Part shown: one piece after another, positions 14,110-48,923 of the stretch
Layout of the letters: every line of letters begins with the position of its first letter
Numbering within the stretch: the stretch's first letter is position 1
Assembly (NCBI GenBank): GCA_964620905.1
Contig: CAZUKA010000001.1
Coordinates: forward strand, 18,141 to 82,140
Direction: 5' to 3'
Origin: an uncultured Gammaproteobacteria bacterium
Lineage (GTDB): Bacteria; Patescibacteriota; Patescibacteriia; S139-126
DNA length: 64,000 bases
Program-made: the position numbers and the translations under genes
The notes under the pieces: model-generated
The model's input: the letters and a program-made list of their open reading frames with translations, nothing else
Told to the model about the DNA's origin: nothing
Databases searched by the model: none

Positions 14110-17100
14110 ATGAAAAAGTTTTTGATTGGCAGTTTGACAGTCATGACCGTAGTTTGGGCCATGGGTTTGTCTGCTTTCGTAGCAGTCCCAGCCTCAGCTG
14201 CTGTTGGTGATCTTGTTAAATCTGCTTCATCTAGCACAGTCTATGTAGTAAAGGCAGACGGTGTCACAATTTGTCAGTTCCCACATGCCAATGTTTACAA
14301 GTCATGGGGATATCCATCAAATTTCAGCACCGTTATGACTAAGGACCTCTCCAGCTACACTGTAGGATCAAACATCGAATTTAGAGATGCTTCCTTAGTG
14401 AAGGGAGATGGCCCAGCTGTATACCTCGTATACAACAACATGAAGAGACCAATTGTTTCTGATGTGGTCTTTTTGGCTCTCGGTTATGACTGGGATGATA
14501 TTACCTGGTTATCCGATGCATTTTTAGCTGATTACACCACTGGCGCGGTAGTTGATTCTTCAACTATGCACCCAGATGGTCAAATCGTAAAATATGCTGG
14601 AAATTCAGCGGTTTATCTCATTGATAACGGCATGAAGCGACCATTTGCTTCAGGTGCGGCTTATGAAGCCAATCGTTATTCTTGGAGTGACATTATTACT
14701 ATCCCTGACACCGAGACCTATCCAAATGGCTCAGCCATTTCAGGTTATGAGCAAGCTTTATCCTTACCAAATTGTATTGGTACCTCAGCAACTCCAGCTG
14801 GTAGCGGTTTGACAGTAGCTTTGTCTGCTTCAACCCCAGCCGCTGGTAGCATTATCACTGATTCATCCAATGGAGGTCAGGCTTTAGCTTCTTTCACCAC
14901 TGTTAACTTCACCGCCTCTTCTGATGGTGATGTTAAAGTAACCAATTTGAAGTTCAAGAGAACAGGTGTATCATCTGATACCTCACTTGATAACATGTAT
15001 CTCTATGATGGTAATACCAAACTTACTGATGGTGGTTCACTATCAAGTGGTATGGTTACCTTCAACAATTCAAATGGTTTATTCACAGTTCCAGCCGGCA
15101 CTACCAAGTCCATCACAGTTAAAGGTGATGTATCTACCACTGCCACCGCTGGTCAGACTATTGGTTTTGAATTATCCGGTTCCGCTTGGGTTACCACCAA
15201 CGGTGCATCCGTTTCTGGTAGTTTCCCGGCCTCTGGACATTTAATGACCGTAGCTTCTGTGTCTGATTTGGCCAAAGTTGGTGTGGCTACAACTTCTGTA
15301 GCTACAACTGTTGATCCTGACTCCACTGATGTAGTGGTTTGGCAGGGTACAGTTTATACCACCAACCAAACTGTGGCTTTGCACTATGTTAAATTTACTT
15401 CCCTCGGCAGCATTCAATATGATGACTTGAAGAATTTCAAGTTATATGATGGTGGCACTTTGGTTTCCTCTGTTGCCAGCATGACTTCTGACCGCGAAGT
15501 AATGTTTGACTTAACTGGCAGCCCAGTTAATTTCACTGTTGGTCAATCCAAGACCTTCAAAGTAATGGCTGATGTCGTCAAAGGTTCTACCCGTACTTAT
15601 AATTTCACTATCCAAGAAGCAACTGATATAGTTGCTAAGGATACCAATTATAATGTGTATGTTACTTCCAAAGTAACTAGCTCTTATGCTAACTGGGTGG
15701 TACTTAAGATGACTACTGATACTCAAATTAATTCTGGTGATTTAACTATTACCAAAGCCAATACCTCACCAACTGGCAATGTTGCTCAAAATGGTACCAA
15801 TGTAAAAGTTGCTACCTTTGAGTTGAAAGCCACTGGTGAAGATATGAAGGTAAAAGATTTGAACGTTAAGGCTGATTTTTCTTCAGGTTATGAAGGTGGT
15901 CTTGACAATGGTAAAGTATTTTTCAATGGCGTCCAAGTTGGTTCTACCAAGGATTTAACTGAAGCTGGTACCATCAACTTTACTTTTGGTTCAAGTTTGA
16001 TTGTTCCAGCCGGTACTACAGGTGTATTGGATATCTATGCTGATATACGTTCAGCTACAGGTACTACCATCACTGATGGTTCTGACGTCACTGTTTCTTT
16101 GGAAGCAGGCAGTTCCAATGTCCAAAAGATGGCATCACTTGGCTATACTAGCGCTCCAAGCGCCTCAGTACCAGCAAATAGTTTAAATGTAACCGCTGGT
16201 TCATTAAGTATTACTGAGTACTCTGCTTATACCAACCAAACCATGGTAGCAGGTAGTAACAACGTCAAGGTTGGTAGCGCTGTGTTTACCGCTGGATCAG
16301 CTGAAGGTGTCAATGTGACTTCAATCACAGTTGATTTATCAGCTGCTGAAGCTGGTAGCTCTACTAACATGTATTTGATGAAGGATGGTGTACAAATTGG
16401 TGTTACAAAACCAACCTTGTCCACTTCCAACATCTTTTCAGTCAATTTCAGCATCCCAGCTTCTGGTAGCCAGATCATTGATCTGTATGCCAGTTTGAAG
16501 AGTAATGCCGGACAAGGTACTTGGGAAGCTTCTATGTCTGCTGAAGGTGTAGGATTAACCACCAACAACACAGTTACTGCTGGTGCCCAAGCTTTACAAG
16601 ATATTACCATTGGCACTGGTGCTTTAACTGGTGTAGTTGATGCTTCCAGACCAGATGCTGATATAATCTTAGCTGGTACTACTAAAGTCTTGATGAACGC
16701 TATTAAGTTTACTGCTCAGTATGAAGACTTCAATGTTCAAGAAATGACTTTTACTGCAGACAATGCTACTGGTAATTTCCAACAACATGTTGGTGCAGTC
16801 ACACTTGAATATCCAACTCAAGGTGGTGGCACAGGTACAGCTCTTGGTTATATGGCAGGTGGTAGTGTTACTTTCACAAACCTTACCTTCTATATAGCAA
16901 GAGATACTTCAGCTGTGTTGAAAGTTTACATTGATGTTCCATCACTATCATCTGGCACCATTTCTGGTGGCACTGGTAGTATAAATTGGGATGTTTCTGC
17001 TACTTATAAGCATGTCGGTTTAGGAAGTGGTAATACTGACAGTGATGCTGATTCAGCACCTGGTATAGTTGCTGCTTCTGATATTGATGGTAATGACATG

Positions 17101-17634
17101 GTAGTAAGAAAGACCAGACCAACAGTAACCTTGGTTTCTTTACCAGCTACTACTTTGACTGCTGGTGATAAGACTCTTTCCAAGTTTACCGTAGCGGCTG
17201 ATGCTAAGGGTTCTATTGAACTCTTTGAATTGAATTGGGATGTTGCCACCTCAGGTGTAGCCTTCACTAGCCCGAGATTGTACAACGATGCCAATCCAAG
17301 CACAGTGTTAACTGCTTCTGGTACTGCAGCGTTTACTACAACCGGTTTAGAATATAAGCTTACTACCCCAGAGCAAATTGCTGCTGGTTCAAGTAAGACC
17401 TATATCTTAGTAGGTTTAGCTGGCGCTGTTTCCAACCCAGCAAGTGTTTCTACTAATTTAGATGCTGATTCAAGTGGAAGTACCGGTACACTTGGTACTC
17501 TCATGGGTTCAGCTACCTTTATTTGGTCAGATCAATCAGCTGTTCCACATACCTTACATACAGCTGACTGGGCAGGCGGCCTATATGTGAAGACTTTGCC
17601 ATCTGGCACTCAAACATTATATTATCCTAATTAA
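14110..17634 (+). CDS. large secreted Ser/Thr/Gly/Ala-rich repeat protein (putative S-layer or surface adhesin; tandem beta-sandwich/Ig-like modules)
   Basis: Signal peptide MKKFLIGSLTVMTVVWAMGLSAFVAVPASAAVGD. The 1174-aa protein is low in charge and has reiterated modules (...VPAGTTKSITVKGDVS..., ...IVPAGTTGVLDIYADIRS..., ...SIPASGSQIIDLYASLKS...). Codon usage is shifted toward C-ending codons (AAG, AAC, TTC, TAC, GGT) relative to neighbouring genes. A strong terminator follows. Confidence 0.7.
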   Translation: MKKFLIGSLTVMTVVWAMGLSAFVAVPASAAVGDLVKSASSSTVYVVKADGVTICQFPHANVYKSWGYPSNFSTVMTKDLSSYTVGSNIEFRDASLVKGDGPAVYLVYNNMKRPIVSDVVFLALGYDWDDITWLSDAFLADYTTGAVVDSSTMHPDGQIVKYAGNSAVYLIDNGMKRPFASGAAYEANRYSWSDIITIPDTETYPNGSAISGYEQALSLPNCIGTSATPAGSGLTVALSASTPAAGSIITDSSNGGQALASFTTVNFTASSDGDVKVTNLKFKRTGVSSDTSLDNMYLYDGNTKLTDGGSLSSGMVTFNNSNGLFTVPAGTTKSITVKGDVSTTATAGQTIGFELSGSAWVTTNGASVSGSFPASGHLMTVASVSDLAKVGVATTSVATTVDPDSTDVVVWQGTVYTTNQTVALHYVKFTSLGSIQYDDLKNFKLYDGGTLVSSVASMTSDREVMFDLTGSPVNFTVGQSKTFKVMADVVKGSTRTYNFTIQEATDIVAKDTNYNVYVTSKVTSSYANWVVLKMTTDTQINSGDLTITKANTSPTGNVAQNGTNVKVATFELKATGEDMKVKDLNVKADFSSGYEGGLDNGKVFFNGVQVGSTKDLTEAGTINFTFGSSLIVPAGTTGVLDIYADIRSATGTTITDGSDVTVSLEAGSSNVQKMASLGYTSAPSASVPANSLNVTAGSLSITEYSAYTNQTMVAGSNNVKVGSAVFTAGSAEGVNVTSITVDLSAAEAGSSTNMYLMKDGVQIGVTKPTLSTSNIFSVNFSIPASGSQIIDLYASLKSNAGQGTWEASMSAEGVGLTTNNTVTAGAQALQDITIGTGALTGVVDASRPDADIILAGTTKVLMNAIKFTAQYEDFNVQEMTFTADNATGNFQQHVGAVTLEYPTQGGGTGTALGYMAGGSVTFTNLTFYIARDTSAVLKVYIDVPSLSSGTISGGTGSINWDVSATYKHVGLGSGNTDSDADSAPGIVAASDIDGNDMVVRKTRPTVTLVSLPATTLTAGDKTLSKFTVAADAKGSIELFELNWDVATSGVAFTSPRLYNDANPSTVLTASGTAAFTTTGLEYKLTTPEQIAAGSSKTYILVGLAGAVSNPASVSTNLDADSSGSTGTLGTLMGSATFIWSDQSAVPHTLHTADWAGGLYVKTLPSGTQTLYYPN

Positions 17635-17677
17635 TTTTTGAGTTTAGTTAGATAGTAAAAGTACTTTACAACGCTTT

Positions 17678-17715
17678 CCACCCCCTGTTCCTATGGCAGG
17701 GGGTGGATTGTTTTT
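17678..17715 (+). terminator. strong intrinsic terminator (ccaccccctg-ttcctatgg-cagggggtgg + attgttttt)
   Basis: 10-bp GC-rich perfect stem followed by a T-run, 44 nt after the stop codon of the large surface protein. Confidence 0.85.
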
Positions 17716-17986
17716 AATTACTAATAACTAATTACTAATTTTAAACAAATTAGTATTTTTTATTGGTTTTTGTTATAATTTTTATAGTTTATTTGTCTGT
17801 TAAGCTAGTATTTGATATTTAGATTATTGAATAAAAGGTTTAAAAAGTATTATTATTTTTTATTAATATTAAATTTTGTAATTTTTAATTTTGTAATTTT
17901 ATAAACAAAAGAATATAAATTTTTAAACATTTGAAATTAAAAATTATTTAAAAATTAGAAAATTTAAAAATTAAAAATTATATAAT

Positions 17987-18790
17987 ATGGAAAATCAACT
18001 AGACAACAATCAAACCAATCAACCAGTGAGTGAAAATAAAAACCAAAACCGGATTTGGTATTTGGTGATAATTATTGCAGTTTTGGCAGTGATTTCTTTT
18101 CTGGTTTACAATAATACCAAAGACAAAACCCCAAAAGTAAGTGAAGAACCAACTAATGGAGAAATATTAATGGGTGGAGAAGAACTATCTCAGTATTTTC
18201 AAAATGAAGAAAAAAAATTAGCTCCTGATGTTTTGCCGCCCGCAGAAATAAAAGTCAGATTTGAAGCTGATTTAGCTGCTGCCAAACAATATATAATTGA
18301 TGAAGAAGGCAAAGAACTAGGTAGTCCTTACCAAGGTTATATGGGAGTTGCCAATTCTTTGCGAGCTATGGGGAATTACGAAGGAGCTGAACAAGCCTAT
18401 TTTGATATGATAGAAAAATTCCCTAATGATGAACTTATCTATCACAATTTAGGTGTTTTATATGAAGATATGCATCAGTATTTGGAAGCAGCTAAGGCAT
18501 ATTCTACTTCTATAGCCAAAAAACCAGATGAGCTTATTGCCCATATGAAACTAGCTGATCTATATGTCAAATATTCAAGTCAACCAGGAAAAGCCAAAGA
18601 AGTATATCTCAAGGCCTTGGAAGCAACTGGAAATCATCCAGAAATGCTCAAAGCCTATGCAGGTTATTTGGAATATACAGAAAATAATCTATCCGAAGCT
18701 TTGCTGTATTGGAAAGAAGTTTTGAAAGCTTATCCTGATAATCAAGCGGTGAAGGAGAGAGTGGAAGAACTTGAAAACAAGTTAAAGTAG
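17987..18790 (+). CDS. membrane-anchored tetratricopeptide-repeat (TPR) protein
   Basis: N-terminal TM (IWYLVIIIAVLAVISFLVY), followed by TPR-like helical repeats (YEGAEQAYFDMIEKFPND..., YLEAAKAYSTSIAKKPDE..., LSEALLYWKEVLKAYPDN). Confidence 0.65.
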   Translation: MENQLDNNQTNQPVSENKNQNRIWYLVIIIAVLAVISFLVYNNTKDKTPKVSEEPTNGEILMGGEELSQYFQNEEKKLAPDVLPPAEIKVRFEADLAAAKQYIIDEEGKELGSPYQGYMGVANSLRAMGNYEGAEQAYFDMIEKFPNDELIYHNLGVLYEDMHQYLEAAKAYSTSIAKKPDELIAHMKLADLYVKYSSQPGKAKEVYLKALEATGNHPEMLKAYAGYLEYTENNLSEALLYWKEVLKAYPDNQAVKERVEELENKLK

Positions 18791-18937: not shown

Positions 18938-21127
18938 ATGTCCCAAAACACCCTCAAACGAATCATCCAATCAGGACTGGCAGCTGTGCTGTTTGTGCCA
19001 ATTTTAGTAAGTGGCAAGTTTTTATTTCCCTATATTCATTTAAAAAATGTAACTTTTCGGGTGCTAGTGACAATTATTTTAGTTTTAGCTGTTTGGTATT
19101 TATGGCGACAAGGTGAAATGTATGTGCGCAAAAATTATGTTTTGTATGCTTTTGCTGGACTGCTGGTAGTAGAAGTCATTGCTGGAATTTTTGGGGTAAA
19201 TTCACAAAATAGTTTTTGGAGCAATTATGAACGGATGGATGGTGTGGTTTTGTTTTGGCATTTACTGTTGTACTTGTTTTTACTTTTTCAGTTTTTTCAG
19301 ACCAAAGCCGATTGGCTGTTGTTGTTGCGTTTATCATCAGTGGTGGCTGTGATTTTATCAATTTATGGATTGGCACAACGGGCGGGAGTAAGTAACGCCT
19401 GGATTTTACCCAATGACGCTCCTCGGATCGCTTCCACCATAGGTAATCCTGCTTATTTTGGAGGGTATTTGTTGTTTCACATATTTTTTTCTGGAATTTT
19501 GCTTTACCTAGACCGAGTGCGGTGGCGACAGGTGATTTACGCTTTGGGAGTCATATTTTTCAGCTATATGATGTATGTGACAGGAACTCGTGGACCTTTC
19601 TTAGGACTGGTGGTGGGACTTATGGTGATGGGGCTTATGTATTTTAAACACGCTAGTAAAAAATTGAAAATCGGCATAGCTGTCGGTCTACTGCTTATCC
19701 CTTTGTCTGGAATATTTTTGTATACACAGCGAGATGCTGCTTGGCTTGGCACATCAACTCTAAAAAGAATTGCCGATATCAATTTGAAAGATTTGACTAC
19801 AATTGATCGTATCAATACTTATGTTACTTCGTGGCATGCTTATACCGATCGTCCTTTATTTGGCTATGGACCGGAGAATTATCGTTATGGGTTCAATAAA
19901 TACTACAATCCCGAATTGCATGAACAGTGGTTTGACCGGGCTCACAATGTTATTTTTGATTATCTAAATATAGGTGGACCTTTGGCACTGATCTTTTATT
20001 TATCACTTATGGGATCGGCATTGTATTATCTTTGGCAAGCAAGAAAAGATGATTATTTTTTGAGTGTGCTTATGATTGGTTTGCTGTCAGCTTATTTTTT
20101 CCAAAATTTATTTGTGTTTGATTCATTGAATACTTATTTGCCCTTGCTTGTTAGTTTGGCAATGTCTGCTTGGCTTTTTTTACACAAACAAAATTTGGCT
20201 AGCAAAATTTCAGCTAGAGTAAGATCTTGGCAGTTGCCGGTTTTATTGGTGGTAGTTTTATTTGTCATATTTAGCAATTATTTTATTGTTATTCGCCCGG
20301 CCAAAGCGAATTTGTTGATGATTGAAGCTTATCGTAACAGTGTGGTTGATCCCCAAAAAACTTTGGAACTTTTTCAAGCCAGTATTGATATGAAAACCTA
20401 TGGTTCGCGTGAAGGCATGCTGCAGCTAAATAATTTTGCTAGTTCAATGGTACGCGATCCCAATCAAACCATTGATTTTAAGCAAAAAGTTTTCCAGGTC
20501 AATCGCACTTATATTTTGGATCACCTAAATCGCGACCCGCATGATATTCAACTGCGAATGCTGCTTGCCAATACCTATCTTGGCTATGCTTTGCTGGATA
20601 ATACTTATTATCAAAAAACTGTTGATTTATTATCACCCTACCTTGATGATTCACCGGATAGGCTAGAGATTTATTTTACTTTGGCGCAGGGGTATTTAGG
20701 CGTAGGAGACATTGATCGAGCGGGTTGGGCAGTCAGGACAGCCTATCAAAAAACTCAAAGTAAGCCCTCGGTGTATTTAAATTTACTGAATTATTATGCG
20801 GCGGTCGGAGATACGGAAAATCTTTTGACTATCGCTAGTGAATATGAAAACAAATTTCCGTTGGGTTTGAATGAGTGGAAACAGCTGGCAGAGTTTTATT
20901 ACAATGTTAAATTGTATGACTTGGCAGAAAAAGTATTGCAAACAAAAATCATTCCCCAAGAAAAAGAAAATATTCAAAATTTTGCTTCCCTGGTAGCTGT
21001 TTGGCGGGATATGGGAAAAATTGACGAAGCGATTGGTTTGCTGGAAGAAATGCGTTTAGCTTTTCCGCAATATGCCAGTGATATCAATAACTATATTGAG
21101 CAAATGCGAGAGGAAATGGGTAATTAA
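18938..21127 (+). CDS. O-antigen ligase (Wzy_C/WaaL-like) domain polytopic membrane protein fused to a C-terminal TPR domain; candidate O-oligosaccharyltransferase
   Basis: About 10-12 TM helices in the N-terminal 430 aa, with a periplasmic loop and the YMMYVTGTRGPFLGLVVGLMVMGL region typical of Wzy_C ligases. The C-terminal 300 aa are TPR-like (YFTLAQGYLGVGDIDRAGWAVRTAYQK, LNYYAAVGDTEN, AEFYYNVKLYDLAEK). Confidence 0.65.
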   Translation: MSQNTLKRIIQSGLAAVLFVPILVSGKFLFPYIHLKNVTFRVLVTIILVLAVWYLWRQGEMYVRKNYVLYAFAGLLVVEVIAGIFGVNSQNSFWSNYERMDGVVLFWHLLLYLFLLFQFFQTKADWLLLLRLSSVVAVILSIYGLAQRAGVSNAWILPNDAPRIASTIGNPAYFGGYLLFHIFFSGILLYLDRVRWRQVIYALGVIFFSYMMYVTGTRGPFLGLVVGLMVMGLMYFKHASKKLKIGIAVGLLLIPLSGIFLYTQRDAAWLGTSTLKRIADINLKDLTTIDRINTYVTSWHAYTDRPLFGYGPENYRYGFNKYYNPELHEQWFDRAHNVIFDYLNIGGPLALIFYLSLMGSALYYLWQARKDDYFLSVLMIGLLSAYFFQNLFVFDSLNTYLPLLVSLAMSAWLFLHKQNLASKISARVRSWQLPVLLVVVLFVIFSNYFIVIRPAKANLLMIEAYRNSVVDPQKTLELFQASIDMKTYGSREGMLQLNNFASSMVRDPNQTIDFKQKVFQVNRTYILDHLNRDPHDIQLRMLLANTYLGYALLDNTYYQKTVDLLSPYLDDSPDRLEIYFTLAQGYLGVGDIDRAGWAVRTAYQKTQSKPSVYLNLLNYYAAVGDTENLLTIASEYENKFPLGLNEWKQLAEFYYNVKLYDLAEKVLQTKIIPQEKENIQNFASLVAVWRDMGKIDEAIGLLEEMRLAFPQYASDINNYIEQMREEMGN

Positions 21128-21917: not shown

Positions 21918-24308
21918 ATGAGGAGAGAGAAGAAAAACATATTTTTTTTGTTGACGACTTTGATTGGTAGCAGTCGCAGGTTATTTATCCCAATAACAAT
22001 CGGGATTTTTTTGTTTTTTGTTTTTATTTTGCCAGTTCAAGCTATTATCATCGCACCCACAGCCACAGTCGGTGGTACAGTGAGAGATGCTAATACCAAT
22101 CAAACAATACCCGGTGCTCGGTTGATGGTGGTGGAAACTTTTACTGACCCTAACTGCGTAGCCGAGTTTGGTGAAAATAAATGTTTTGACAATCATTATA
22201 TATTCAACGAGACCACGACCAATTCATCCGGATCTTATAACTTTATAGTTGATGCTTGCGGTATGTCTTCATTGTTGGTAATTGTCAAAGAGGGCTATCA
22301 AAATTTTTCCCAGCCGAATAGTTTTGCTTGTTGGAGTAGTCAGGTAAAAAATATTTTACTAACGCCTGATAATCCTGTCTTACCTGAGCCGGTTATAATT
22401 ATTCCAGGGATTATGGCCAGTTGGAACCGGTATCTTTTAGACAAAAATTTAGAATACGCTGATGAGTGGGTGCTTGATCCACATTTTCACACTTATGACC
22501 AGCTGATTTCTGACCTGCAAACCTATGGAGGTTATGTCTTGGGCCAAACCTTGTTTACTTTTCCTTATGACTGGCGGAAAAATAATGAGTTTACCGCCCA
22601 ACTGTTGCGATCAAGAATTCAAGACATCAAAGCTCAAACCGGAGCTAGTAAAGTTGATATAGTAGCTCATTCTATGGGCGGACTGATAGTTAGGTATTAT
22701 ATTGAGAGTGAATTATATCAAGATGACATTGACCAGTTAATTTTTATTGCCACGCCCCAACGCGGCGCACCCAAAGCGTATCTGGCTTGGGAAGGCGGAT
22801 TTTTGGGGACCAGTATTGTGTCTGATTTTTTATTAGAAGTTTTAATTGCAAAAATTGCCAAAACTGATGGATTTTGTGACAGCGTTATAACCCGCAATAC
22901 GTGTGTTTACAACTATATCCGCAACTATCCAGTAGCCACAGTCAAACAACTTTTACCAGATAATGCATATCTAGAATCAGCATTGACCAGTGAGTTATTG
23001 TTGTATCCTGACAATCATCCAAACAATGATTTTTTGGAATTTTTAAATAATCAGGAAAGTTTGGCTAAGTTGTATGATTCTGGCATTGAGATTAGCACAA
23101 TATACAACTCTACCCCAAATAGCACTGTAGCTGGCATTAAAGTAATTGACCGTGAAGCAGGTCAAGTTCCTTTTTGGGAATATGGTTATCCGCACGGGTT
23201 TACTAGTTTGTTAAGAAATAATGGAATAATAAAAGGAAATGGAGATGGTACAGTAACAATTGATAGTAGTATTTATTTAGATTCAACTAGAAATATAAGT
23301 AAATTAAGTACAAATCATTCGAAGATTGTTTCGTTATCAGCCAAAAATGTAATTGAAATATTAAAAGGGGAATTTATTGATATTCAAGTAATTGATCAAC
23401 CAGATGAGTATGTAATTATTCAAGTGCATTCACCAATCAATGCGCAAATAGCAACGCCTCAAGGGAAAATTGTTGGGCAGGATTTTGCTTCTGGAGTTGA
23501 TGTCAATGAAGTTGAAGGAGCATATTACTCTGGCAGTGGAGCAACAAATGAATATATTGTTTTACCGCTAGTTGAAACAGGGGAATATGAGGTTAGTTTA
23601 CAAGGAACTGGAAGTGGTGAATATAAAGTTGAAATAATTTTAGCTGATGAGCAAGGAATAAGCAGTAAGGCATTTTCCGGTCAAATAGCCCCTGAAGTTG
23701 TGATAGATCTAAAGTTTCAGATAAATGAACAGGAGATAGGTGAAATTTTACCTGTTGATAAAACTGATCCAGTTATTACTATCACTAGTCCGGAAGTAAA
23801 AGAGTATGAACATCATTTACTGGTGCCAATCCAATATTTAGCAACAGATGATAGTGGGCAAATAACCACCAGCACTATTTGGTTCGATAGTGAAGAATAT
23901 GGGGGAGAAAATATTGATTTGTTTGTTTGGGAACTTGGGGAACACAAACTAGTAGTAAAGAGTAGTGATTGGTCAGGCAATAGTGCAGAACAAGAGGTTG
24001 TATTTACAGTTATTGCCACTATAACTAGTTTGCGATCAGATATCAATCGGTTGTATGATGAAGGAGAAATAAAAAATCAAAAAACCAAACAACAGCTTTT
24101 GACTGATACTGAAGTTTTGCAAAAGCTTTTGCAGTTTTATAAACCATATTTAGCGTCCAAACATCCATTTTTTGGCATGGTAATTGATAAGATCATAGGA
24201 GAGGTTATAAGCAAGCGACTTAGTAAGTATTTACGTCAAGGATATATCAGTGTCAAAACACACCAAATTTTGAAAACGCAAATGATTTATATAATTAAAC
24301 ATTATTAA
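21918..24308 (+). CDS. surface-anchored alpha/beta-hydrolase (LCAT/PGAP1-like lipase/esterase) with N-terminal carboxypeptidase-regulatory-like domain and large C-terminal beta-rich region
   Basis: N-terminal TM/signal (IPITIGIFLFFVFILPVQA). Pro-rich linker, then the FPYDWR motif and the GxSxG nucleophile elbow VAHSMGGLIVRYY, typical of LCAT/PGAP1-like lipases. The C-terminal 450 aa have no recognised match. Confidence 0.6.
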   Translation: MRREKKNIFFLLTTLIGSSRRLFIPITIGIFLFFVFILPVQAIIIAPTATVGGTVRDANTNQTIPGARLMVVETFTDPNCVAEFGENKCFDNHYIFNETTTNSSGSYNFIVDACGMSSLLVIVKEGYQNFSQPNSFACWSSQVKNILLTPDNPVLPEPVIIIPGIMASWNRYLLDKNLEYADEWVLDPHFHTYDQLISDLQTYGGYVLGQTLFTFPYDWRKNNEFTAQLLRSRIQDIKAQTGASKVDIVAHSMGGLIVRYYIESELYQDDIDQLIFIATPQRGAPKAYLAWEGGFLGTSIVSDFLLEVLIAKIAKTDGFCDSVITRNTCVYNYIRNYPVATVKQLLPDNAYLESALTSELLLYPDNHPNNDFLEFLNNQESLAKLYDSGIEISTIYNSTPNSTVAGIKVIDREAGQVPFWEYGYPHGFTSLLRNNGIIKGNGDGTVTIDSSIYLDSTRNISKLSTNHSKIVSLSAKNVIEILKGEFIDIQVIDQPDEYVIIQVHSPINAQIATPQGKIVGQDFASGVDVNEVEGAYYSGSGATNEYIVLPLVETGEYEVSLQGTGSGEYKVEIILADEQGISSKAFSGQIAPEVVIDLKFQINEQEIGEILPVDKTDPVITITSPEVKEYEHHLLVPIQYLATDDSGQITTSTIWFDSEEYGGENIDLFVWELGEHKLVVKSSDWSGNSAEQEVVFTVIATITSLRSDINRLYDEGEIKNQKTKQQLLTDTEVLQKLLQFYKPYLASKHPFFGMVIDKIIGEVISKRLSKYLRQGYISVKTHQILKTQMIYIIKHY

Positions 24309-24311
24309 TTT

Positions 24312-24689
24312 ATGAAAAAAACAGTTTATTTTATCCTGTCTTGGCTAGGAGTAGCTATTTTAGCCTGGCTAACAGCCAGTATTGGTAAAAATATTTACGG
24401 CATATTTTTTCCTGATCAAGTAATGGGTACTTGGATTAATATCATTGAGCCTGGTATTATAGAAGGATTTGTATTGGTATATTTATTTTGGCTGGGACTT
24501 TTGTTTGTGCCCGTGTTTAAAACCAAATGGTGGCAGTATGCTTTGGCACCGGGTTTAATATTATTTTTACCTTTTATGCTTTTTTGGCAAATTGCTCTAA
24601 TGGGGATAATGTTCTTTGCGGTTGGAGTGGGGTTGGGGTATCTGGCGCTTTGGTTGAAGAAAAAAATTGGTACAGGATTTAAGATTTAG
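24312..24689 (+). CDS. small integral membrane protein (about 4 TM), unknown function
   Basis: Hydrophobic 125-aa ORF starting 4 nt after the lipase-like gene. Confidence 0.5.
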   Translation: MKKTVYFILSWLGVAILAWLTASIGKNIYGIFFPDQVMGTWINIIEPGIIEGFVLVYLFWLGLLFVPVFKTKWWQYALAPGLILFLPFMLFWQIALMGIMFFAVGVGLGYLALWLKKKIGTGFKI

Positions 24690-26212: not shown

Positions 26213-26215
26213 ATA

Positions 26216-27505: not shown

Positions 27506-27524
27506 AGCAAAAAAGATTTATGAT

Positions 27525-27920: not shown

Positions 27921-27993
27921 AAAACGTAAATCGTAAATCTTAAATCCTAAATCTTAGTGATATTCATAAATCTTAAATCGTAAATCGTAAATC

Positions 27994-28770: not shown

Positions 28771-28842
28771 TAGAAAAGATTTAGGATTTAAGATTTAGGA
28801 TTTAAGAATAATAATCATAAATCATAAATCATACTTCATAAA

Positions 28843-29667: not shown

Positions 29668-29686
29668 GTTTTTAGCTGTTAGCTTT

Positions 29687-32759: not shown

Positions 32760-32762
32760 ATA

Positions 32763-36818: not shown

Positions 36819-36823
36819 AGATT

Positions 36824-37738
36824 TTATTTTAATTTTTTATACCAGTCGATTGTTAGCTCTATACCCTTTTGAAAATTTGTTTTTGGTTTCCAAGAAATTA
36901 GTTTAGCAATATTTGAATTATCAAGGTATTTTTCTTTAAATTTTCTATTATCGATATCCCAAATAATTTTACCTTTGTAGTTCATTTTATAGGAAATAAT
37001 TTTATATATATCGTTAATTTTAATTAATTTTCCTGAGCCAGCATTAATTAAGGTAATATTTTTTTTATTAATAATTTTTTCAATTACCTCTACAGCATCA
37101 TCAACAAATAAAAGGTCAATTTTTTGGTTTGCATTGTTACCGCCTTTTATTTCAGGAATTTTTTTGATCGTAGCATTTTCTAATTGTTTTATAATATTTG
37201 CTATAAGTGGAGGCGGGTTATAATTAAATTTATCTTCTGGTCCATAAAGATTGGGAAATATTATTGTCGTAATATTTGTTCCATATTGTTTTTTATAAGC
37301 CTCAGCCATTGTTTCTAAAATTCTTTTTGCAATACCATATTCTTTTGAGTATTGATTAACATCACCCTTCCATAAATCTTCTTCTCTCAGCTTACCTTCA
37401 ATATTATCAGGGTAAGCAGTAATTGATCCAATAAGAATAACTCTTACATTTTTAATTTTTTTTGCAGCTTCAAGAATTTGTAAATTGATCAATAAATTTT
37501 TATATAAAACTTCTGATGGTCTTAAATTTTGTTCTGTTCTACTTAAAACAAGTCCAGCAAGATTAATAATAATATTTTTTCCCTTAACCAATTTTAAACA
37601 GTTGTTTAATTTTGTTAGGTCATACTCGGTGCTTTTTGGTGTATAAATATTATAATTTTTATTATTTTTTAGTTTTTTGATCAATCGTTTACCCAGAAAA
37701 CCGGTCGCACCAGTTATTAAAATTTTTTTCTTTGTCAT
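36824..37738 (-). CDS. NAD(P)-dependent nucleotide-sugar epimerase/reductase (SDR extended family)
   Basis: Rossmann GxxGxxG motif KKILITGATGFLGKRL, and catalytic YxxxK (YGIAKRILE). Confidence 0.7.
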   Translation of the reverse strand: MTKKKILITGATGFLGKRLIKKLKNNKNYNIYTPKSTEYDLTKLNNCLKLVKGKNIIINLAGLVLSRTEQNLRPSEVLYKNLLINLQILEAAKKIKNVRVILIGSITAYPDNIEGKLREEDLWKGDVNQYSKEYGIAKRILETMAEAYKKQYGTNITTIIFPNLYGPEDKFNYNPPPLIANIIKQLENATIKKIPEIKGGNNANQKIDLLFVDDAVEVIEKIINKKNITLINAGSGKLIKINDIYKIISYKMNYKGKIIWDIDNRKFKEKYLDNSNIAKLISWKPKTNFQKGIELTIDWYKKLK

Positions 37739-39024
37739 AAATTTATATTTACAATAGAATTAATATGTTTTTTTATATCTTTCAAAAATATTTGTTCGGT
37801 ATAATTTTTTAATATTTCTTCTCTTGATAATTTTGAGCGATTAAGTAAGTTTTCATTTGTTTCTAAAAGTATTTTTTGAATAATCGTATTTATATCTTCT
37901 ATTTGAAAGCTATTTAGGGTAAAACCAAAGTTTTTGGTATCAATATTGCATTCCGGAGTGACAATAGGGATTAAACCGTATTGCATACAATCAAGTACGC
38001 CACCGGGCATACCTTCATGGGCAGATGGTTGGATAATATAGTTGCATTTTTTTATAATTTCATAAAATTTTTTTGATCTTTGTTTTAGATAACCAAGCAG
38101 ATGGATGTTTGGATATTTTTTTAAATCATAAATTTTTTGCAGTTCCGGCGAAATTTGCGAGCAGATAAATATATTGTAGTCAGAATTTTTGGTAAATATT
38201 TCAAGTAGTAAATCAAGACCTTTTTCAATATTTCTGTAACCACCACTAAAAAATAAAAAGTTTTTTTTGTTTTTTTCTATATCATTTATTCCTTTATTAT
38301 AATGAAAATATTTATCTACATAAACCCCATTGATTGTGTGGTGAACGTTAGGTAAAGAATCATATGTTTTAGCTAAATTGTCGCCAACTGTAATAATTCC
38401 ATTTGCATAAGATAGGAGCGGATCAACTTTTCTACCCAGATTTTCAATTTCTTTTAGTTGATGGGTGAGTTCATTTTGCAAGTTTAAATTGTGACGCTGG
38501 GTGAAATAATCATATCTTTGTTTTATTTTTTCTTTTCTAACTCGCCAATAAGCGCCTGTATCAAAATAAATATATTTTCCACTAGCTTTTAAATTGTCTT
38601 TAATTATTTTTTGATCATAGATATTGTGTACAACCATTAAATCATATTTTTTATGACCATTGTATTTAAAATAATCACTGTCAATTATATCCACAACAAA
38701 GCCAAGCTCATTTAAAGCCCTAGTAATATTTATGACTAAACCATTGTTACTAAAATAAAATTTCATTTTTCCAACAAAGTGTTTTTTGTAAATAGGAAAA
38801 CGAAAAAATATTAGTAGCGCCTTTTTTGGTTTTATATTGTGTAGTAAATCTTTTTTATAAGCAGGTAAAACATTTTTATCACCAACAAATATCAATCCTT
38901 TAATAGTAAAATACAAATATGCCAAAAAATATATAAGTTTATTTATCAGGATATTAATAAACTCAAACAAAGTCAGGTTCGCTGATCCGAAAAGCCAAAT
39001 ATTTCTTTTTATATTTTTGATCAT
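37735..39024 (-). CDS. glycosyltransferase (GT-B fold, GT4-like)
   Basis: C-terminal IIQPSAHEGMPGGVLDCMQYGLIPIVTPECNID. Confidence 0.6.
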   Translation of the reverse strand: MIKNIKRNIWLFGSANLTLFEFINILINKLIYFLAYLYFTIKGLIFVGDKNVLPAYKKDLLHNIKPKKALLIFFRFPIYKKHFVGKMKFYFSNNGLVINITRALNELGFVVDIIDSDYFKYNGHKKYDLMVVHNIYDQKIIKDNLKASGKYIYFDTGAYWRVRKEKIKQRYDYFTQRHNLNLQNELTHQLKEIENLGRKVDPLLSYANGIITVGDNLAKTYDSLPNVHHTINGVYVDKYFHYNKGINDIEKNKKNFLFFSGGYRNIEKGLDLLLEIFTKNSDYNIFICSQISPELQKIYDLKKYPNIHLLGYLKQRSKKFYEIIKKCNYIIQPSAHEGMPGGVLDCMQYGLIPIVTPECNIDTKNFGFTLNSFQIEDINTIIQKILLETNENLLNRSKLSREEILKNYTEQIFLKDIKKHINSIVNINL

Positions 39025-40352
39025 ATTTTTTGTCTATATTTGTGTATAAACATTTGACGAATTTTTAGGATTACCCAGACTGTCAAAGGCAGAGAAGAAT
39101 AGGAAACAAGCGTTGCTATAGCTGCGCCGTTTATTCCGTAGATCGGAATAAAAATAAAATTTAGTGTAAGATTTAAAATCATACCAATACAAGAAGATAT
39201 AAAAAATATTTTGGTAAAATTTTCAGTAATCAAGTACTGATTTACCACTTCGGCAATTGCCAGGCCAATTCCCGCCCAAACATAAATTTGCAGTACGGAA
39301 ATGGCTGGCAGATAAGCAGAGCCAAAGAAGATTTTAATAATTGGTTTAGCTAGTAGGAATATAGGCAAAGAAATTGATATAGATATTATAAATATCAAAA
39401 GTAGGAGATCTTTGAGTCTTTTTTTATAGACAATCTCATTTATTTTTTTGGCATTCACAATTGCTGGTACTAAGGAAGCAGTGATTAAACCCGGGATAAA
39501 ATACCAGACCTCGGCTACTCTGACAGCTACATCATAAAATCCAACTGCAGTTTGGTTGATCATATGTTTTACCATAATCTGATCAAAGCGTGAGTAGATT
39601 AAGGCAAAGACACTGACAAAAAGTAGGGGCCAGGAATCTCGTAGGATTTGTTTGGCCATATTTTTATTGAACCGCCAAGAGAAAATGTTTTGTTTGAATA
39701 TTTTATAAATCAGCAAAAAACTCAAAGCATAAAGTATGCTTTCTAAAAGATAAACTGCCGAAAAATAAATTATTCCTTTTCCCGACAGAACCAAAATAAT
39801 TTTTATTACCGATAAAATAAAAATCACACAAATTGAAGCGATAGTTGGGTATTTTGAAAGTAATTGTGAACCAAAAAAACCGTTGACAACATAGAATGAT
39901 TGAAAGATAAAAGCAAATGCAATAAGTAGTATTAAGATGTTGGCGGTATTTTCTTGTTGCAAAATTAAAATAGTGACTAAAACCGAAAGAAAAGCCAATA
40001 TCCCGCCCATGATTTTAAGAAAAAATGAAGTTCCTAAATATTCGTTTCTTTTTTCTGGATATCTGATTATTTCTCGATATACAATTTGATCAATGCCAAG
40101 ATTGGCAATAAATGAAAATAGACCTACAAAACTCACTGCATAACTAAGGAGTCCATAATTAGAAGGTCCTAGATAGCGAGCAACATAAGCCATTACAAAA
40201 AATGAAACAATTAAACTAAAAATTTTCCCCAAAAAAATCCAACCTGTATTGTGCAGGTACTTTTTAAATCCTTCAAGATCAAAATATTCTTTTAGACTGA
40301 TTATTCGATTGTATAAACTTGCTATCATTTTTTTACTCTTTTGTAACCACAC
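39021..40352 (-). CDS. wzx: polysaccharide biosynthesis flippase (Wzx; MOP/MATE superfamily)
   Basis: 12 or more predicted TM helices, about 443 aa. The N-terminal region YLGPSNYGLLSYAVSFVGLFSFIANLGIDQIVYREI is typical of Wzx-family O-unit flippases. Confidence 0.7.
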   Translation of the reverse strand: MWLQKSKKMIASLYNRIISLKEYFDLEGFKKYLHNTGWIFLGKIFSLIVSFFVMAYVARYLGPSNYGLLSYAVSFVGLFSFIANLGIDQIVYREIIRYPEKRNEYLGTSFFLKIMGGILAFLSVLVTILILQQENTANILILLIAFAFIFQSFYVVNGFFGSQLLSKYPTIASICVIFILSVIKIILVLSGKGIIYFSAVYLLESILYALSFLLIYKIFKQNIFSWRFNKNMAKQILRDSWPLLFVSVFALIYSRFDQIMVKHMINQTAVGFYDVAVRVAEVWYFIPGLITASLVPAIVNAKKINEIVYKKRLKDLLLLIFIISISISLPIFLLAKPIIKIFFGSAYLPAISVLQIYVWAGIGLAIAEVVNQYLITENFTKIFFISSCIGMILNLTLNFIFIPIYGINGAAIATLVSYSSLPLTVWVILKIRQMFIHKYRQKI

Positions 40353-41145
40353 ACAAATACTGATGATTGTGGAAAAAAGAAATTTTTAAAAATAGTTTAT
40401 TTATTCCTTTTATAAATAGATTGGGATTATTGAGATTAACAAAAATTCCGCCAAATTCATGATACAAACCACCCAGATGATCAATGGGTACTTTTTCAAC
40501 TATTTTAAATCCAGCTGTGGTTAATTCTCGTTCAAACTCTTGTTTGGTAAATCTGTATTCAAAAAAATCTCCTTTGACTGGCCAACGATTGTATTTATAG
40601 TTTATCTTTTCTTTGTTTTTATTTTTATATAACCACTCCGAACCCTTTTTAAATAAGTGATAGAAAATTCTTAGATAATAATCCAAATAATTCAGTCCGG
40701 TATATTTTTTTATGATCCGTAAATAGTTAAAACAGGGGACAGTGATGATGGCTATGCCACCAGGTTTTAGCACACGTTGCATCTCTTGGAGAGGTTTGCT
40801 GGGTCCATCAATAAAATGTTCCACTACACCAAGAGAAAGGACGCCACCAAAATAGTTGTTGGGAAAATTTAAATTTTCTATATCACCATAAGCAACATTT
40901 AGCTTTGGTTCCAAAGAATTACAAATTTCTACTGATTTTTTGTTTATCTCTATGCCAATGGCTTGATAACCCTTATTTTCCAAGAATTTTACATATTGAC
41001 CCAAACCGCAACCAGCTTCCAATATAAAATCATTTTTTTTAAAATATTTATAAATATAGGTAGTGATAATACTGGTATCACAAGCCGCAAGTAAATTGTA
41101 AAATTCTTTGGGATTCCAATTGAAAGTTGGCGTGTGTTTATCCAT
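40333..41145 (-). CDS. class I SAM-dependent methyltransferase
   Basis: Motif [12 protein letters not shown] and motif post-[12 protein letters not shown]. Confidence 0.7.
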
Positions 41146-42076
41146 ATTTTTCAGTATAGAATTTATAATATTTTTTTAGTCCTTCAGCTAAATTTATTTT
41201 ATGTCGCCAACCCAATTTTTTTAATTTTGTAATATCTAGTAGTTTACGAGGGGTGCCGTCTGGTTTGGTTTTATCCCAAATAATTTTACCTGGATAATTG
41301 ATAGTTTGTTTTATGAGTAAAGCTAAATCTGCAATACTTAGTTCGTCACCTGTACCGATATTTATTATTTCCGAATCATTGTAATTTTGCATCAAAAATA
41401 TACAAGCATCTGCTAGGTCGTCAACATACATAAATTCTCGTTTAGGTTTACCTGTACCCCAAACTGTGACGGTGGGGGATTTGTTTATTTTTGCTTCATG
41501 AAATTTTCGCAGTAAGGCGGGTAGCACATGTGCTGTTTCTAGGTTGAAGTTGTCATTTGGACCATAAAGGTTGGTGGGCATCACGGAAATAAAATTTGTT
41601 CCATATTGTTTATTGTAGGCCTGGCACATTTTGATACCAGCTATTTTAGCAATTGCGTATGGTTCATTGGTTGGTTCTAATTTGCCAGTAAGCAAGTATT
41701 CCTCTTTGATTGGTTGAGGCGAGTACTTTGGATAAATACAAGAAGAACCTAAAAATAAAAGTTTTTTAACTCCTGTCAGGTAAGCATTGTGGATTATATT
41801 GTTTTGGATAGTAATATTTTGAAAAATAAAATCAGCCGGATAATTGCTATTGGCATGAATTCCACCCACTTTAGCTGCTGCCAAAAATACATAGTCTGGT
41901 TTTTCTTTTTGAAAAAATTGAGCAACCTTGTGGGCAGCAAATAAATCAAGTTGTTTTCTAGTTCTAGTGATAATATTTGTATAACCTTTATTTTGTAACT
42001 GTCGATAAATTGCTGATCCTACAAGTCCGGTATGACCGGCAAGATAAATTTTACTTTTTTTGTTCATAGTTTTCAT
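41138..42076 (-). CDS. fcl: GDP-L-fucose synthase (GDP-4-keto-6-deoxy-D-mannose-3,5-epimerase-4-reductase)
   Basis: [19 protein letters not shown]...[22 protein letters not shown]...[20 protein letters not shown] matches Fcl/WcaG. Overlaps gmd by 26 nt. Confidence 0.85.
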
Positions 42077-43094
42077 TGATTAAATCTTCTTCGCACATAA
42101 GTTTTACCAGCTCCGCAAAGGTGGTAGTTGGACTCCAGCCAAGTTTTTCCTTGGCCTTTGTGAAGTCACCTTGCAAAATATCAACTTCAGCCGGGCGGAA
42201 ATATTTTTGATCTATTTCTATTAATATTTTACCAGATTTTTTATCAATGCCTTTTTCCTCCACGCCTTTGTTTTGCCAAACAATTTCATAATCAAAATGC
42301 TTGGCAGCTATTTCCACAAATTCACGCACCGAGTGTGATTCGTTGGTTGCTAAGATGTAGTCATCTGGTTCTGCCTGTTGCAACATCAGCCACATTCCTT
42401 CTGCATAGTCTCTGGCATAACCCCAATCACGTTTGGCATCTAGATTTCCCAAATAGAGTTTTTCTTCTATACCCAGTTTGATGCGTGCTAGCCCTCGGGT
42501 GATTTTTCTAGTGACAAAGGTTTCACCACGTCTGGGGGATTCGTGGTTAAATAAAATGCCATTGGCGGCAAAAAGACCATAGCTTTCGCGGTAGTTTTTG
42601 GTAATCCAGTAAGCATAGACTTTAGCCACACCATAAGGAGATCTGGGATAAAAGGGTGAAGTTTCTTTCAGCGGTATTTCGTGGGCCATGCCAAACATCT
42701 CACTGGATGATGCTTGATAAAATTTGGTCTTGATGCCAGTTTCACGTATCGCATCAAGCAACCTAAGTGTACCAAGTGCCGTGACATTGCCGGTGTATTC
42801 GGGAATATCAAAACTTACCCTGACATGACTTTGCGCACCTAAGTGATAGATTTCATCAGGGTTGATTTTGGCAAGTAAACGATCTAGATTTGACCCGTCA
42901 GACAAATCACCATAGTGTAAGAAAAGTTTTACACCAAGGATGTGAGGGTCTTTATACAAATGATCAATGCGGGCAGTATTGAAAGTAGAAGCGCGACGGA
43001 TAATACCGTGAACCTCATAGCCTTTACTAAGGAGTAGTTCCGCAAGGTAAGATCCGTCTTGTCCGGTGATACCGGTTATTAATGCTTTTTTCAT
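42051..43094 (-). CDS. gmd: GDP-mannose 4,6-dehydratase
   Basis: [47 protein letters not shown] is near-diagnostic for Gmd. First gene of a 14-gene overlapping minus-strand operon. Confidence 0.9.
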
Positions 43095-47938: not shown

Positions 47939-48200
47939 GGTTAGAAGTAAGAATTAAGAAGTAAGAAGTAAGATTAATTAGTAATTAGTCAAAATTTAAT
48001 TAAAAGAAACAAATCACAAGAAACAATTATCAAACAAATTTCAAAATTCAAATTACAAAGTCCAAACAGTTTGGTTATTGATATTTATAATTTAAGATTT
48101 GTTTGTAGTTTGTATCTTGTACCTTGGTTATTTTTATATATTTATTTTGGTAATTATGCTTAATACTAGATACTTTATACTTTATACTTGATACTAATCT

Positions 48201-48923
48201 ATGATTATTGTTATTCCCGCAAAAAATGAAGAACAGCGGATTGGGCCTACTCTAGAAGCTTATTTAAATAAGTTTACAGATATTAAACTAGTGGTAGTTA
48301 TTACCCCAGGCACTGATCAAACCGAAAAAGTTATAATAAATTTTAAAAATTTATATCCCGGAAGAATTGATTATTTTTCTTTGGAAAAATTTGTCGGCAA
48401 TAGTAAAGGCAAAGCAATCAGAGTGGGGTTTAAATATGTTTTAGAAAATTATCCGGCAGAAAATTTAATTGGCTTTATAGATGCTGACAATTCTTTGGAA
48501 CCGATGGAATTTGGAAAGTTAGTTTCTTATTTGTCGGATTATGATCTAGCCATTGCTTCTAGGTATTTACCAGAATCAGTATTAATAGATCGAGATTCGC
48601 GACTTAGAGTTGTAGCATCTTTATTGTTCCGTTATTTAGTAAAAATTTTATTTGGTCTAAAAGTAGTCGATACTCAGTGTGGGGGTAAGTTGTTTAGGCG
48701 ACAAGTAATTTTGGAAATTTTACCAAAACTCCAGATTGATGACATGGCAATTGATGTAGAAATCTTATTTTTAAGTAAACAATTGGGCAAAACTATCAAA
48801 GAAGTACCAGTGGTGTGGCGAGAAAAACAAGCTTCGACTATTTCCACTTCACAAGTGCATTTTATAAAAACCAGTTGGCGAATGCTAAGATCGCTTGTTA
48901 AGTTGAGATTGAAAAGTTTGTGA
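48201..48923 (+). CDS. polyprenyl-phosphate glycosyltransferase (GT2; GtrB/DPM1-like)
   Basis: MIIVIPAKNEEQRIGPTLEAYL...GFIDADNS...QCGGKLFRR is typical of dolichyl/undecaprenyl-phosphate hexosyltransferases. Paired with the upstream gtrA. Confidence 0.8.
   Translation: MIIVIPAKNEEQRIGPTLEAYLNKFTDIKLVVVITPGTDQTEKVIINFKNLYPGRIDYFSLEKFVGNSKGKAIRVGFKYVLENYPAENLIGFIDADNSLEPMEFGKLVSYLSDYDLAIASRYLPESVLIDRDSRLRVVASLLFRYLVKILFGLKVVDTQCGGKLFRRQVILEILPKLQIDDMAIDVEILFLSKQLGKTIKEVPVVWREKQASTISTSQVHFIKTSWRMLRSLVKLRLKSL

Follow-up and report, generated by a model that had tools for sequence, protein, structure and literature searches.

A five-gene module in a 64,000-nucleotide stretch of contig CAZUKA010000001.1 (assembly GCA_964620905.1; hereafter the window) encodes, in this order, an extracytoplasmic function (ECF)-type sigma factor, a DUF5667-type membrane protein, a secreted surface protein of 1174 amino acids (aa; hereafter the big protein), a 267-aa tetratricopeptide repeat (TPR) protein and a 729-aa protein in which a Wzy_C domain is fused to TPRs (hereafter the ligase). 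The reading favoured here, tentatively and with somewhat less than even confidence, is that the ligase is an enzyme of the WaaL/PglL type which O-glycosylates secreted surface proteins by transferring glycans en bloc, and that the adjacent wall-anchored big protein, with its array of immunoglobulin (Ig)-like domains, is its principal client. The pairing of these genes is conserved across many lineages of the Candidate Phyla Radiation (CPR, Patescibacteria) and plausibly represents a surface-protein glycosylation system.

The original prediction, made from the sequence of the window, had proposed a CPR-like lineage, in agreement with the source names of the homologues, which are almost all Patescibacteria/CPR metagenome-assembled genomes (MAGs). 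The ligase loci retrieved from 80 genomes are likewise nearly all from Patescibacteria MAGs, their origin being judged by homologue names, and an identical ligase sequence occurs in only one other public contig. Across the whole window, 50 open reading frames (ORFs) of at least 100 aa were scanned against Pfam, and selected proteins also against NCBIfam; statements on the gene content of the window refer to this set. Another 13 listed ORFs of at least 100 aa lay outside the Pfam scan, 11 of which overlap scanned genes while 58-585 and 11206-11547 stand alone. The ORF map, Pfam and NCBIfam together confirmed the genes named in the original prediction at their positions.

A putative WaaL-like ligase with a TPR arm

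The ligase (18938..21127, + strand) matches the Pfam family Wzy_C (PF04932) over residues 204-355 with 62.4 bits against a cutoff of 31.7 (E 5e-17), and carries C-terminal TPRs. As foreseen, it is the sole Wzy_C protein among the scanned ORFs, and it is fused to a TPR domain. An AlphaFold model built from a 72-sequence alignment (predicted local distance difference test, pLDDT, 92.8; predicted TM-score, pTM, 0.90) was used to delimit its parts: a WaaL-like domain with 12 transmembrane (TM) helices (residues 1-415), a K/R-rich loop (416-431), a 13th TM helix (432-452) and a TPR superhelix (472-728; nt 20351-21121). With its 12 TM helices and a large outer loop joining TM9 to TM10, the modelled N-terminal domain is superimposable on the solved structure of WaaL, which points to a WaaL-type fold. 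The positive-inside rule and the topology of WaaL suggest that the TPR domain lies outside the cytoplasm together with the catalytic loops, and by topology both TPR domains, that of the ligase and that of the 267-aa protein, would lie outside the cell.

Among the 72 homologues 19 alignment columns are invariant; E98, R99, R218, R291, W331, D333, H336 and D395 are among them and fall in predicted outer loops. Wzy_C ligases and O-oligosaccharyltransferases (O-OTases) need a conserved His for their activity (PMC9829042). At the sequence level the N-terminal domain stands apart: a phmmer search of it against PDB sequences found nothing, a profile search with the ligase was dominated by TPR matches and gave no link from the N-terminal domain to solved structures, and NCBIfam returned only a weak match to IctB.

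More than 900 homologues of about 730 aa share the architecture of the ligase, and a pattern scan located the family in at least 595 species-representative genomes, essentially all of them CPR MAGs. Across phyla its members are 27-30% identical and keep the 19 invariant columns, while the sugar genes beside them vary over the CPR (fucose, NeuB/CMP-sugar or UGDH genes). A constant enzyme next to changing sugar genes suggests a ligase or oligosaccharyltransferase of relaxed specificity rather than a Wzy polymerase. Judged from sequence, the protein also fits the polymerase class poorly, as no Wzz or other polysaccharide co-polymerase (PCP) was detected among the 50 scanned ORFs and the family is conserved beside different sugar genes. 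The invariance of R218, R291 and H336, together with this constancy in varied surroundings, thus argues for a WaaL/PglL-type en bloc glycan ligase and against a polymerase, the activity being predicted from the fold and the conserved residues.

A secreted Ig-array protein with a putative wall-binding module

The big protein (14110..17634, + strand) was expected to be secreted and rich in Ser and Thr, and this is what the translation reveals: a signal peptide (residues 1-30) and 24.2% Ser+Thr, in a net acidic sequence with only 2 Cys. Behind the signal peptide come a repeat module (residues 31-225) and then some six beta-sandwich domains, and the C-terminus is conserved. No match was obtained in Pfam or NCBIfam. 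The AlphaFold2 model (pLDDT 87, pTM 0.45) is an elongated chain of domains, in which a duplicated alpha/beta N-terminal module precedes the approximately six beta-sandwich (Ig-like) domains. The original prediction had regarded the protein as a candidate S-layer protein, a view that found no support: the top 50 Foldseek matches in the PDB are generic tandem Ig-like structures with no S-layer protein among them, and neither Pfam, NCBIfam nor Foldseek revealed S-layer homology or anchoring domains (SLH, CWB2). 'S-layer' is therefore an unsupported label for this protein.

The repeat module comprises 195 residues (nt 14200-14784, + strand) in units of about 60 aa and is without a Pfam match. It is represented by 3331 cluster representatives, in 1-9 copies and located N- or C-terminally in proteins of 165-3254 aa, and the carriers sampled also hold Glucosaminidase, Peptidase_M23, CAP, subtilase-remnant (weak Peptidase_S8) or beta-helix domains. 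Such promiscuous co-occurrence is typical of cell-wall binding, and the module is likely, from these sequence associations, to be a CPR family of cell-wall-binding domains. In a subset of the big-protein homologues PG_binding_1 takes the place of the N-terminal ~200 residues. The big protein accordingly has the make-up of a wall-anchored surface protein, binding itself being predicted from sequence, and its surface display is indicated by the signal peptide, the swappable wall-binding N-terminus and the Ig-like array, as well as by the codon bias and strong terminator of its gene.

The codon bias had been described as that of a highly expressed gene. It is real, although modest: no other window gene with ordinary GC content at third codon positions (GC3) has an effective number of codons (ENC) as low as its 39.1, the value for dnaK being 42.8. 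The very strong terminator postulated behind the gene was found as an intrinsic-terminator-like hairpin (17677..17717, + strand), with a stem at 17677-17707 of 13 bp including 8 GC pairs, followed by the T-rich TTGTTTTTAA.

More than 320 homologues of 1100-1370 aa occur in CPR, all annotated as hypothetical. Among full-length collinear orthologues the big protein is more conserved than the adjoining ligase, the respective identities being 92% against 75%, 55% against 42% and 42% against 35%.

Conservation of the gene order

The order ECF sigma factor, DUF5667-type protein, big protein, TPR protein and Wzy_C-TPR protein recurs in six loci retrieved with the ligase (L002, L008, L004, L005, L009 and L011), the ligase identities being 75%, 46%, 42%, 35% and about 30%. 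The order of the big, TPR and ligase genes is kept from 92% down to about 27% identity of the big protein. In five look-ups starting from the big protein (L088-L092), the ligase gene is adjacent in L088 and L091 and 7 kb away in L092. An unbiased metagenome scan seeded with big-protein patterns yielded 78 loci. Downstream sequence of 4 kb or more is available in 36 of these, and 26 of the 36 have a same-strand Wzy_C gene in the first 4 kb; in one more it is found within 10 kb.

The ligase gene had been placed directly beside the gene for the big protein. The two are close, but a gene missed at that time intervenes, that of the 267-aa TPR protein (17987..18790, + strand; Pfam TPR_14, TPR_2 and TPR_1), which has a single N-terminal membrane anchor (TM segment at residues 23-41). 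Its orthologues are found between the big gene and the ligase gene in the six ligase-first loci and in L088 and L089.

The module begins with the ECF-type sigma factor gene (11865..12428, + strand), which matches Pfam Sigma70_r2/r4_2 and, above cutoff, NCBIfam TIGR02937, and is closest to the BldN family. Such a gene lies 5' of the big-protein orthologues in all six ligase-first and all five big-protein-first loci, and in 26 of 41 metagenome loci. It is followed by the gene for a DUF5667-type membrane protein (12429..13454, + strand; Pfam DUF5667 at E 3e-5, a weak match that stays under the gathering score) with one TM segment at about residues 53-77, orthologues of which occupy the equivalent position in L004, L005 and L088-L091. 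From its gene position this protein is a putative anti-sigma factor. Between it and the big gene, inspection of the sequence reveals a long intergenic leader of 655 nt (13455..14109, + strand) which has no obvious Shine-Dalgarno sequence and no Rfam match to a riboswitch or other known RNA. An alignment of upstream regions showed blocks such as aaaggtcggac and ttcgttgcaatgagttcta to be common to L002 and L008 and partly to L004, a conservation seen among close relatives only. These blocks may represent an ECF-dependent promoter or an mRNA-stabilising leader.

Two tandem Wzy_C paralogues are present in 11 of the metagenome loci, and tandem Wzy_C(-TPR) paralogues also in L004 (10001-14418; the pair about 30% identical) and L088 (12548-17071). 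They might be a ligase and a polymerase, or two enzymes differing in donor or acceptor specificity.

Outside the module context, the ligase gene is found directly beside genes for WbaP (divergent), Wzx or gmd/fcl, or beside a block encoding an S8 peptidase with FG-GAP repeats, GtrA and a family 2 glycosyltransferase (L007, L018 and L025).

The glycan-assembly island

Downstream of the module lies a glycan-assembly island (26372..43094, - strand), assigned by Pfam and, for gmd, fcl and FkbM, by NCBIfam. In map order it encodes a glycosyltransferase (GT) of family 4, an intervening sequence protein (IVP), GT2, GT11, an FkbM methyltransferase, a GT-B-like ORF, GT4, GT2, GT2, GT4, a DegT aminotransferase, an Fcl-like reductase, a GT4-like protein, Wzx, a class-I methyltransferase, fcl and gmd. 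It is followed on the + strand by genes for a WbaP-type polyprenyl-phosphate glycosylphosphotransferase (43687-45012; Pfam Bac_transf), and, all by Pfam, a secreted S8 peptidase with FG-GAP repeats (45233-47440), GtrA (47444-47938) and a DPM-like GT2 (48201-48923).

The assembly line outlined in the original prediction is largely present. WbaP exceeds its TIGR03025 cutoff (372 against 296 bits), as do gmd its TIGR01472 cutoff (569 against 415 bits), the GT11 fucosyltransferase that of Glyco_transf_11 (122.8 against 23.9 bits, an assignment at family level) and the Wzx flippase that of Polysacc_synt (114.5 against 28.2 bits). The fcl gene is sustained as well, though borderline (NF047922, 498.9 bits against a cutoff of 500), and the DegT aminotransferase and both FkbM and class-I methyltransferases are in place. 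The count of at least nine further GT2/GT4 enzymes is slightly generous: eight are recognised by Pfam, while the ninth is a GT-B-like ORF of 300 aa without a Pfam match (30665-31567). This ORF was also considered as a hidden Wzy, being the only Pfam-less ORF of the island, and was rejected since it has no TM segment and appears GT-B-like and soluble. The scanned ORFs include, as anticipated, no separate Wzy, no second Wzy_C protein and no Wzz. The window thus holds a Wzx-dependent undecaprenyl-phosphate glycan pathway, with an initiating transferase, eight GT2/GT4 enzymes plus GT11 and a flippase of the MOP family, and a GDP-L-fucose pathway with its fucosyltransferase (gmd, the borderline fcl and GT11). 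As WbaP, Wzx or gmd/fcl genes directly adjoin the ligase gene in many CPR loci, and the island, with about ten GTs and Wzx, is without another polymerase, the ligase can be tied to this pathway.

The centre of the island (33695-39024), which encodes GT2, GT4, DegT, the Fcl-like reductase and the GT4-like protein, has a GC content of 0.23-0.28 compared to ~0.38 elsewhere, and a GC3 of 0.15-0.21 compared to ~0.30. Low GC is typical of variable, exchanged glycan loci, and the sequence suggests a recently exchanged cassette for a second GDP-linked amino- or deoxy-sugar.

In distant CPR lineages the FG-GAP subtilase recurs in linkage with WbaP, the ligase and GtrA (L007 12489-14738, L018 6744-8948 and L025 12127-14157). 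In L007 and L018 the WbaP/S8-FG-GAP/GtrA/GT2 block is as in the window, with a Wzy_C-TPR gene between WbaP and S8. The subtilase could be a processing protease for a glycosylated surface protein.

Relation to known glycosylation systems

Both WsaB and WsfB, which are predicted to be S-layer O-OTases, contain Wzy_C; WsfB and PglL end in a C-terminal TPR motif, and WsaB lacks TPRs, but wsaA just upstream of it encodes a small TPR protein (PMC2943079). The resemblance of the window to the slg loci of Firmicutes, proposed earlier, stands for the architecture as described for those loci (a small TPR gene and a Wzy_C-TPR protein). At this level the analogy is apt, since the window has both an upstream small TPR gene and a fused TPR domain: the ligase shares with Paenibacillus alvei WsfB the C-terminal TPR on a Wzy_C enzyme, and the 267-aa protein and ligase correspond to the small TPR gene and Wzy_C gene of wsaA/wsaB in Geobacillus stearothermophilus. 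The WbaP-homologous initiator WsaP and the O-methylation of the glycan in slg loci have parallels in the WbaP and methyltransferases of the window, and the slg target is, like the big protein, secreted, wall-anchored and transcribed alone. The systems differ in export, through Wzx in the window but an ABC transporter (Wzm/Wzt) in G. stearothermophilus, and in the candidate acceptor gene, which is adjacent and syntenic in the window but unlinked in Firmicutes. The ECF sigma/DUF5667 pair ahead, the CPR origin and a candidate acceptor without an SLH-type domain are peculiar to the window.

The large TM9-TM10 outer loop is shared with WaaL of Cupriavidus metallidurans (PDB 7tpg/7tpj), to which the ligase is 14% identical; in the ligase this loop carries invariant Arg and His residues, presumed to correspond to those of WaaL. 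Beyond the architecture of WaaL, the ligase has the 13th TM helix and a TPR domain of 260 residues, predicted to be extracytoplasmic. A glycan donor linked to undecaprenyl pyrophosphate (Und-PP), as used by WaaL, is implied for the ligase by the WbaP and Wzx context. No CPR organism is known to make lipid A-core, so the acceptor of the ligase would have to differ from that of WaaL. The proteobacterial enzymes PglL, TfpO/PilO, PglS and TfpM combine a Wzy_C domain with an essential conserved His (PMC9829042), as the ligase combines Wzy_C with an invariant His, and transfer glycans en bloc from Und-PP to Ser/Thr, as is proposed for the ligase. The TPR motif of PglL is also C-terminal (PMC2943079), that of the ligase being much longer. 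No match between these O-OTases and the ligase was detected at the sequence level (phmmer against PDB, NCBIfam), and no pilin gene is evident among the ORFs scanned in the window. A long TPR superhelix fused to a glycosyltransferase is also known from OGT and from the TMTC-type GT-C O-mannosyltransferases, and the best TPR matches of the ligase include the TPR domain of OGT. The catalytic fold and donor of these enzymes are unrelated to those of the ligase, so that the resemblance is architectural only, and no OGT-like conserved Asn ladder is evident in the TPR region of the 72-sequence alignment.

Proposed pathway and alternative explanations

In the pathway that we propose, WbaP and the approximately ten GTs of the island would use undecaprenyl phosphate at the inner membrane face to build a large, methylated oligosaccharide containing fucose and amino-deoxy-sugar, and Wzx would flip the finished product, a chemistry suggested by the gene content. 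At the outer face, the ligase would transfer the whole glycan en bloc, its TPR arm and the membrane-anchored 267-aa TPR protein presenting the protein acceptor. The most likely acceptor at this locus would be the adjacent, abundantly expressed big protein, O-glycosylated at Ser, Thr or Tyr, held on the wall through its N-terminal repeat module and displaying its Ig-like array, with its expression probably under the ECF sigma/DUF5667 pair just upstream. A protein acceptor is suggested by the conserved order of the big, TPR and ligase genes (26 of 36 loci), by the TPR precedents WsfB, WsaA/WsaB and PglL and by the outward topology of the TPRs. The CPR-wide spread of the ligase family indicates that it is probably a general surface-protein O-glycosyltransferase, with the big protein as a major client.

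Several observations speak against this proposal. The terminator cuts the big gene off from the TPR and ligase genes, which are therefore not on one transcript with it. A search of 14110-17634 for glycosylation sequons, suggested with the original prediction, found no known type enriched: NxS/T sequons have a z of about 0 across 49 homologues and the Bacteroidetes-type D(S/T)(A/I/L/V/M/T) motif is depleted, and both N-glycosylation and Bacteroidetes-type sequons were accordingly rejected. The conserved residues of the TPR region appear in the 72-sequence alignment to be structural only, and H336, although invariant in these homologues along with R218 and R291, is only presumed to align with the catalytic His of WaaL and PglL. 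No Wzy_C gene was found within 8 kb in L089 and L090, and nine of the 36 big-protein loci are without a nearby one. The fucose island, supposed to stand next to the big protein, does so in the window, but elsewhere only in the close relative L002, which is syntenic as far as it extends; in L004 it is absent, an ATP synthase operon following where the island would be. Moreover, the ligase family has a far broader distribution than that of the big protein, many genomes and loci being without the big protein, and among its immediate neighbours in about 80 genomes MurB is the commonest (15 loci), followed by SecA (9), Bac_transf (7), Wzx (7), TPR (6) and gmd (5). The ligase is therefore not a dedicated partner of the big protein, and the recurrent links of the ligase to wall synthesis (MurB) and secretion (SecA) are not fully accounted for by any current explanation. 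The glycosylation of the big protein is, finally, a prediction from synteny and the TPR precedent.

The main alternative, a serious one though less probable than this proposal, is that the Wzx-flipped glycan is ligated to peptidoglycan, a glycolipid or a lipoglycan anchor and forms a secondary cell-wall polymer (SCWP), to which the module of the big protein would bind as SLH and CWB2 bind the SCWP of Firmicutes, with the TPRs as scaffolds of envelope machinery. S-layer genes of Firmicutes are often near the genes for their SCWP ligand, and a wall polymer would account just as well for the synteny, for MurB as a neighbour and for the near-universal occurrence in CPR of both the ligase (at least 595 species) and the repeat module (3331 cluster representatives). 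WaaL, whose solved structure comes closest to the ligase, acts on a lipid-linked saccharide acceptor, and TPRs, going by a reference as cited in PMC2943079, also occur in polysaccharide export scaffolds. Against this, the adjacency to MurB may reflect one large clade and not independent events, and the order of big, small TPR and ligase genes matches the protein O-OTase precedents WsaA/WsaB and WsfB. Some big-protein orthologues carry PG_binding_1 instead of the repeat module. In L090, the single locus of this kind that was looked at, neither a small TPR gene nor a Wzy_C gene occurs within 8 kb, and the PG_binding_1 variants therefore do not discriminate between a wall polymer and a protein acceptor.

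It is improbable that the ligase is instead the Wzy polymerase of a Wzx/Wzy pathway of capsule or exopolysaccharide type, its TPR domain replacing Wzz/PCP and the product being a free or wall-linked polysaccharide. The Pfam family Wzy_C does cover polymerases, no other polymerase is present among the scanned ORFs, and the tandem Wzy_C paralogues (L004, L088 and 11 metagenome loci) could be a polymerase and a ligase. Wzy polymerases normally co-vary with the structure of their repeat unit, however, and usually have a Wzz/PCP co-polymerase, while this family retains 27-30% identity and its 19 invariant columns across phyla beside unrelated sugar genes; its invariant His is typical of ligases and O-OTases, and some ten GTs imply a unit larger than the typical Wzy repeat unit. 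Less probable still is an O-OTase for different clients, for example type IV pilins or a multitude of secreted proteins, with the big protein as no substrate and the synteny reflecting shared ECF regulation of the envelope. The many genomes and loci with a ligase but no big protein, the frequent SecA neighbour, the pilin-like genes near the big-protein locus L090 and the glycosylation of pilins by Wzy_C enzymes of the PilO/TfpO/TfpM type (PMC9829042) would be in line with this, whereas the strongly conserved adjacency of ligase and big protein (26 of 36 loci) and a window whose scanned ORFs include no evident pilin gene are not.

Organisms of the CPR are ultra-small, mostly uncultured episymbionts whose envelope mediates attachment to the host, yet the identity of their surface layer and their protein glycosylation are essentially uncharted; literature searches on the CPR surface layer, protein glycosylation, O-antigen ligases/O-OTases and DUF5667 found nothing relevant. 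Surface-protein glycosylation dependent on Wzy_C and TPRs is already known from the slg loci of Firmicutes and would here be met in the CPR radiation. A bolder version of our proposal, which must be considered quite doubtful, is that the five-gene module provides the major S-layer-type envelope glycoprotein of much of the CPR together with a dedicated, TPR-guided O-OTase, and that Patescibacteria rely on the Wzy_C-TPR family for protein O-glycosylation in general. If true, the CPR would thereby gain its first assigned protein-glycosylation pathway as well as its first surface-lattice protein family. Testable candidates are in any case at hand: a conserved family of wall-anchored Ig-array proteins, a CPR-wide WaaL-like ligase with an outward TPR arm, and a hitherto unannotated wall-binding repeat module which occurs across thousands of proteins and merits a family definition of its own. 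An O-OTase of relaxed specificity from a monoderm-like lineage, should the ligase prove to be one, would be of interest for glycoengineering.

Neighbouring genes and other features of the window

Downstream of the ligase (21918..24689, + strand) are genes for an LCAT-like alpha/beta-hydrolase (796 aa, N-terminal TM segment, CarboxypepD_reg; Pfam LCAT E 1.6e-17) and for a 125-aa protein with four TM segments by TM scan. The hydrolase also lies 3' of the ligase in L002 (12981-15745) and L008 (12499-14823) and has phmmer matches anywhere within the locus in L124 and L129, and a counterpart of the 125-aa protein was found in L002. A possible role of the hydrolase is that of an acyl-transferase or esterase for an envelope glycan or lipid.

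Between the surface module and the island lies a small patch of mobile or toxin-antitoxin genes (24690-26371, 1.7 kb). It holds a GIY-YIG gene of 95 aa (24958-25245) flanked by a perfect direct repeat of 63 nt (24811-24873 and 25220-25282), and an XRE-type helix-turn-helix gene (25712-26002) with short RelE/HigB-like ORFs just 5' of it. Within the island, the IVP gene (27525-27920, - strand) encodes a four-helix-bundle '23S rRNA intervening sequence protein' (PF05635), and further PF05635 genes are found in L002, one on each side of the ligase gene (9580-9939 and 12251-12610), and in L005 (9568-9873).

GtrA and the DPM-like GT2 (47444-48923) represent two parts of a three-component extracytoplasmic glycosylation system, consisting of a polyprenyl-P-sugar synthase, a flippase and a GT-C enzyme. 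No GT-C partner was identified in the window, and the counterpart position in L006 holds an unannotated protein of 596 aa (8176-9966). Directly 3' of the glycan genes (49174-54116), an HlyD-like adaptor and a MacB-type ABC transporter with one ATPase and two FtsX/MacB_PCD permeases form a tripartite-style efflux set, which is unusual for an organism presumed to be without an outer membrane.

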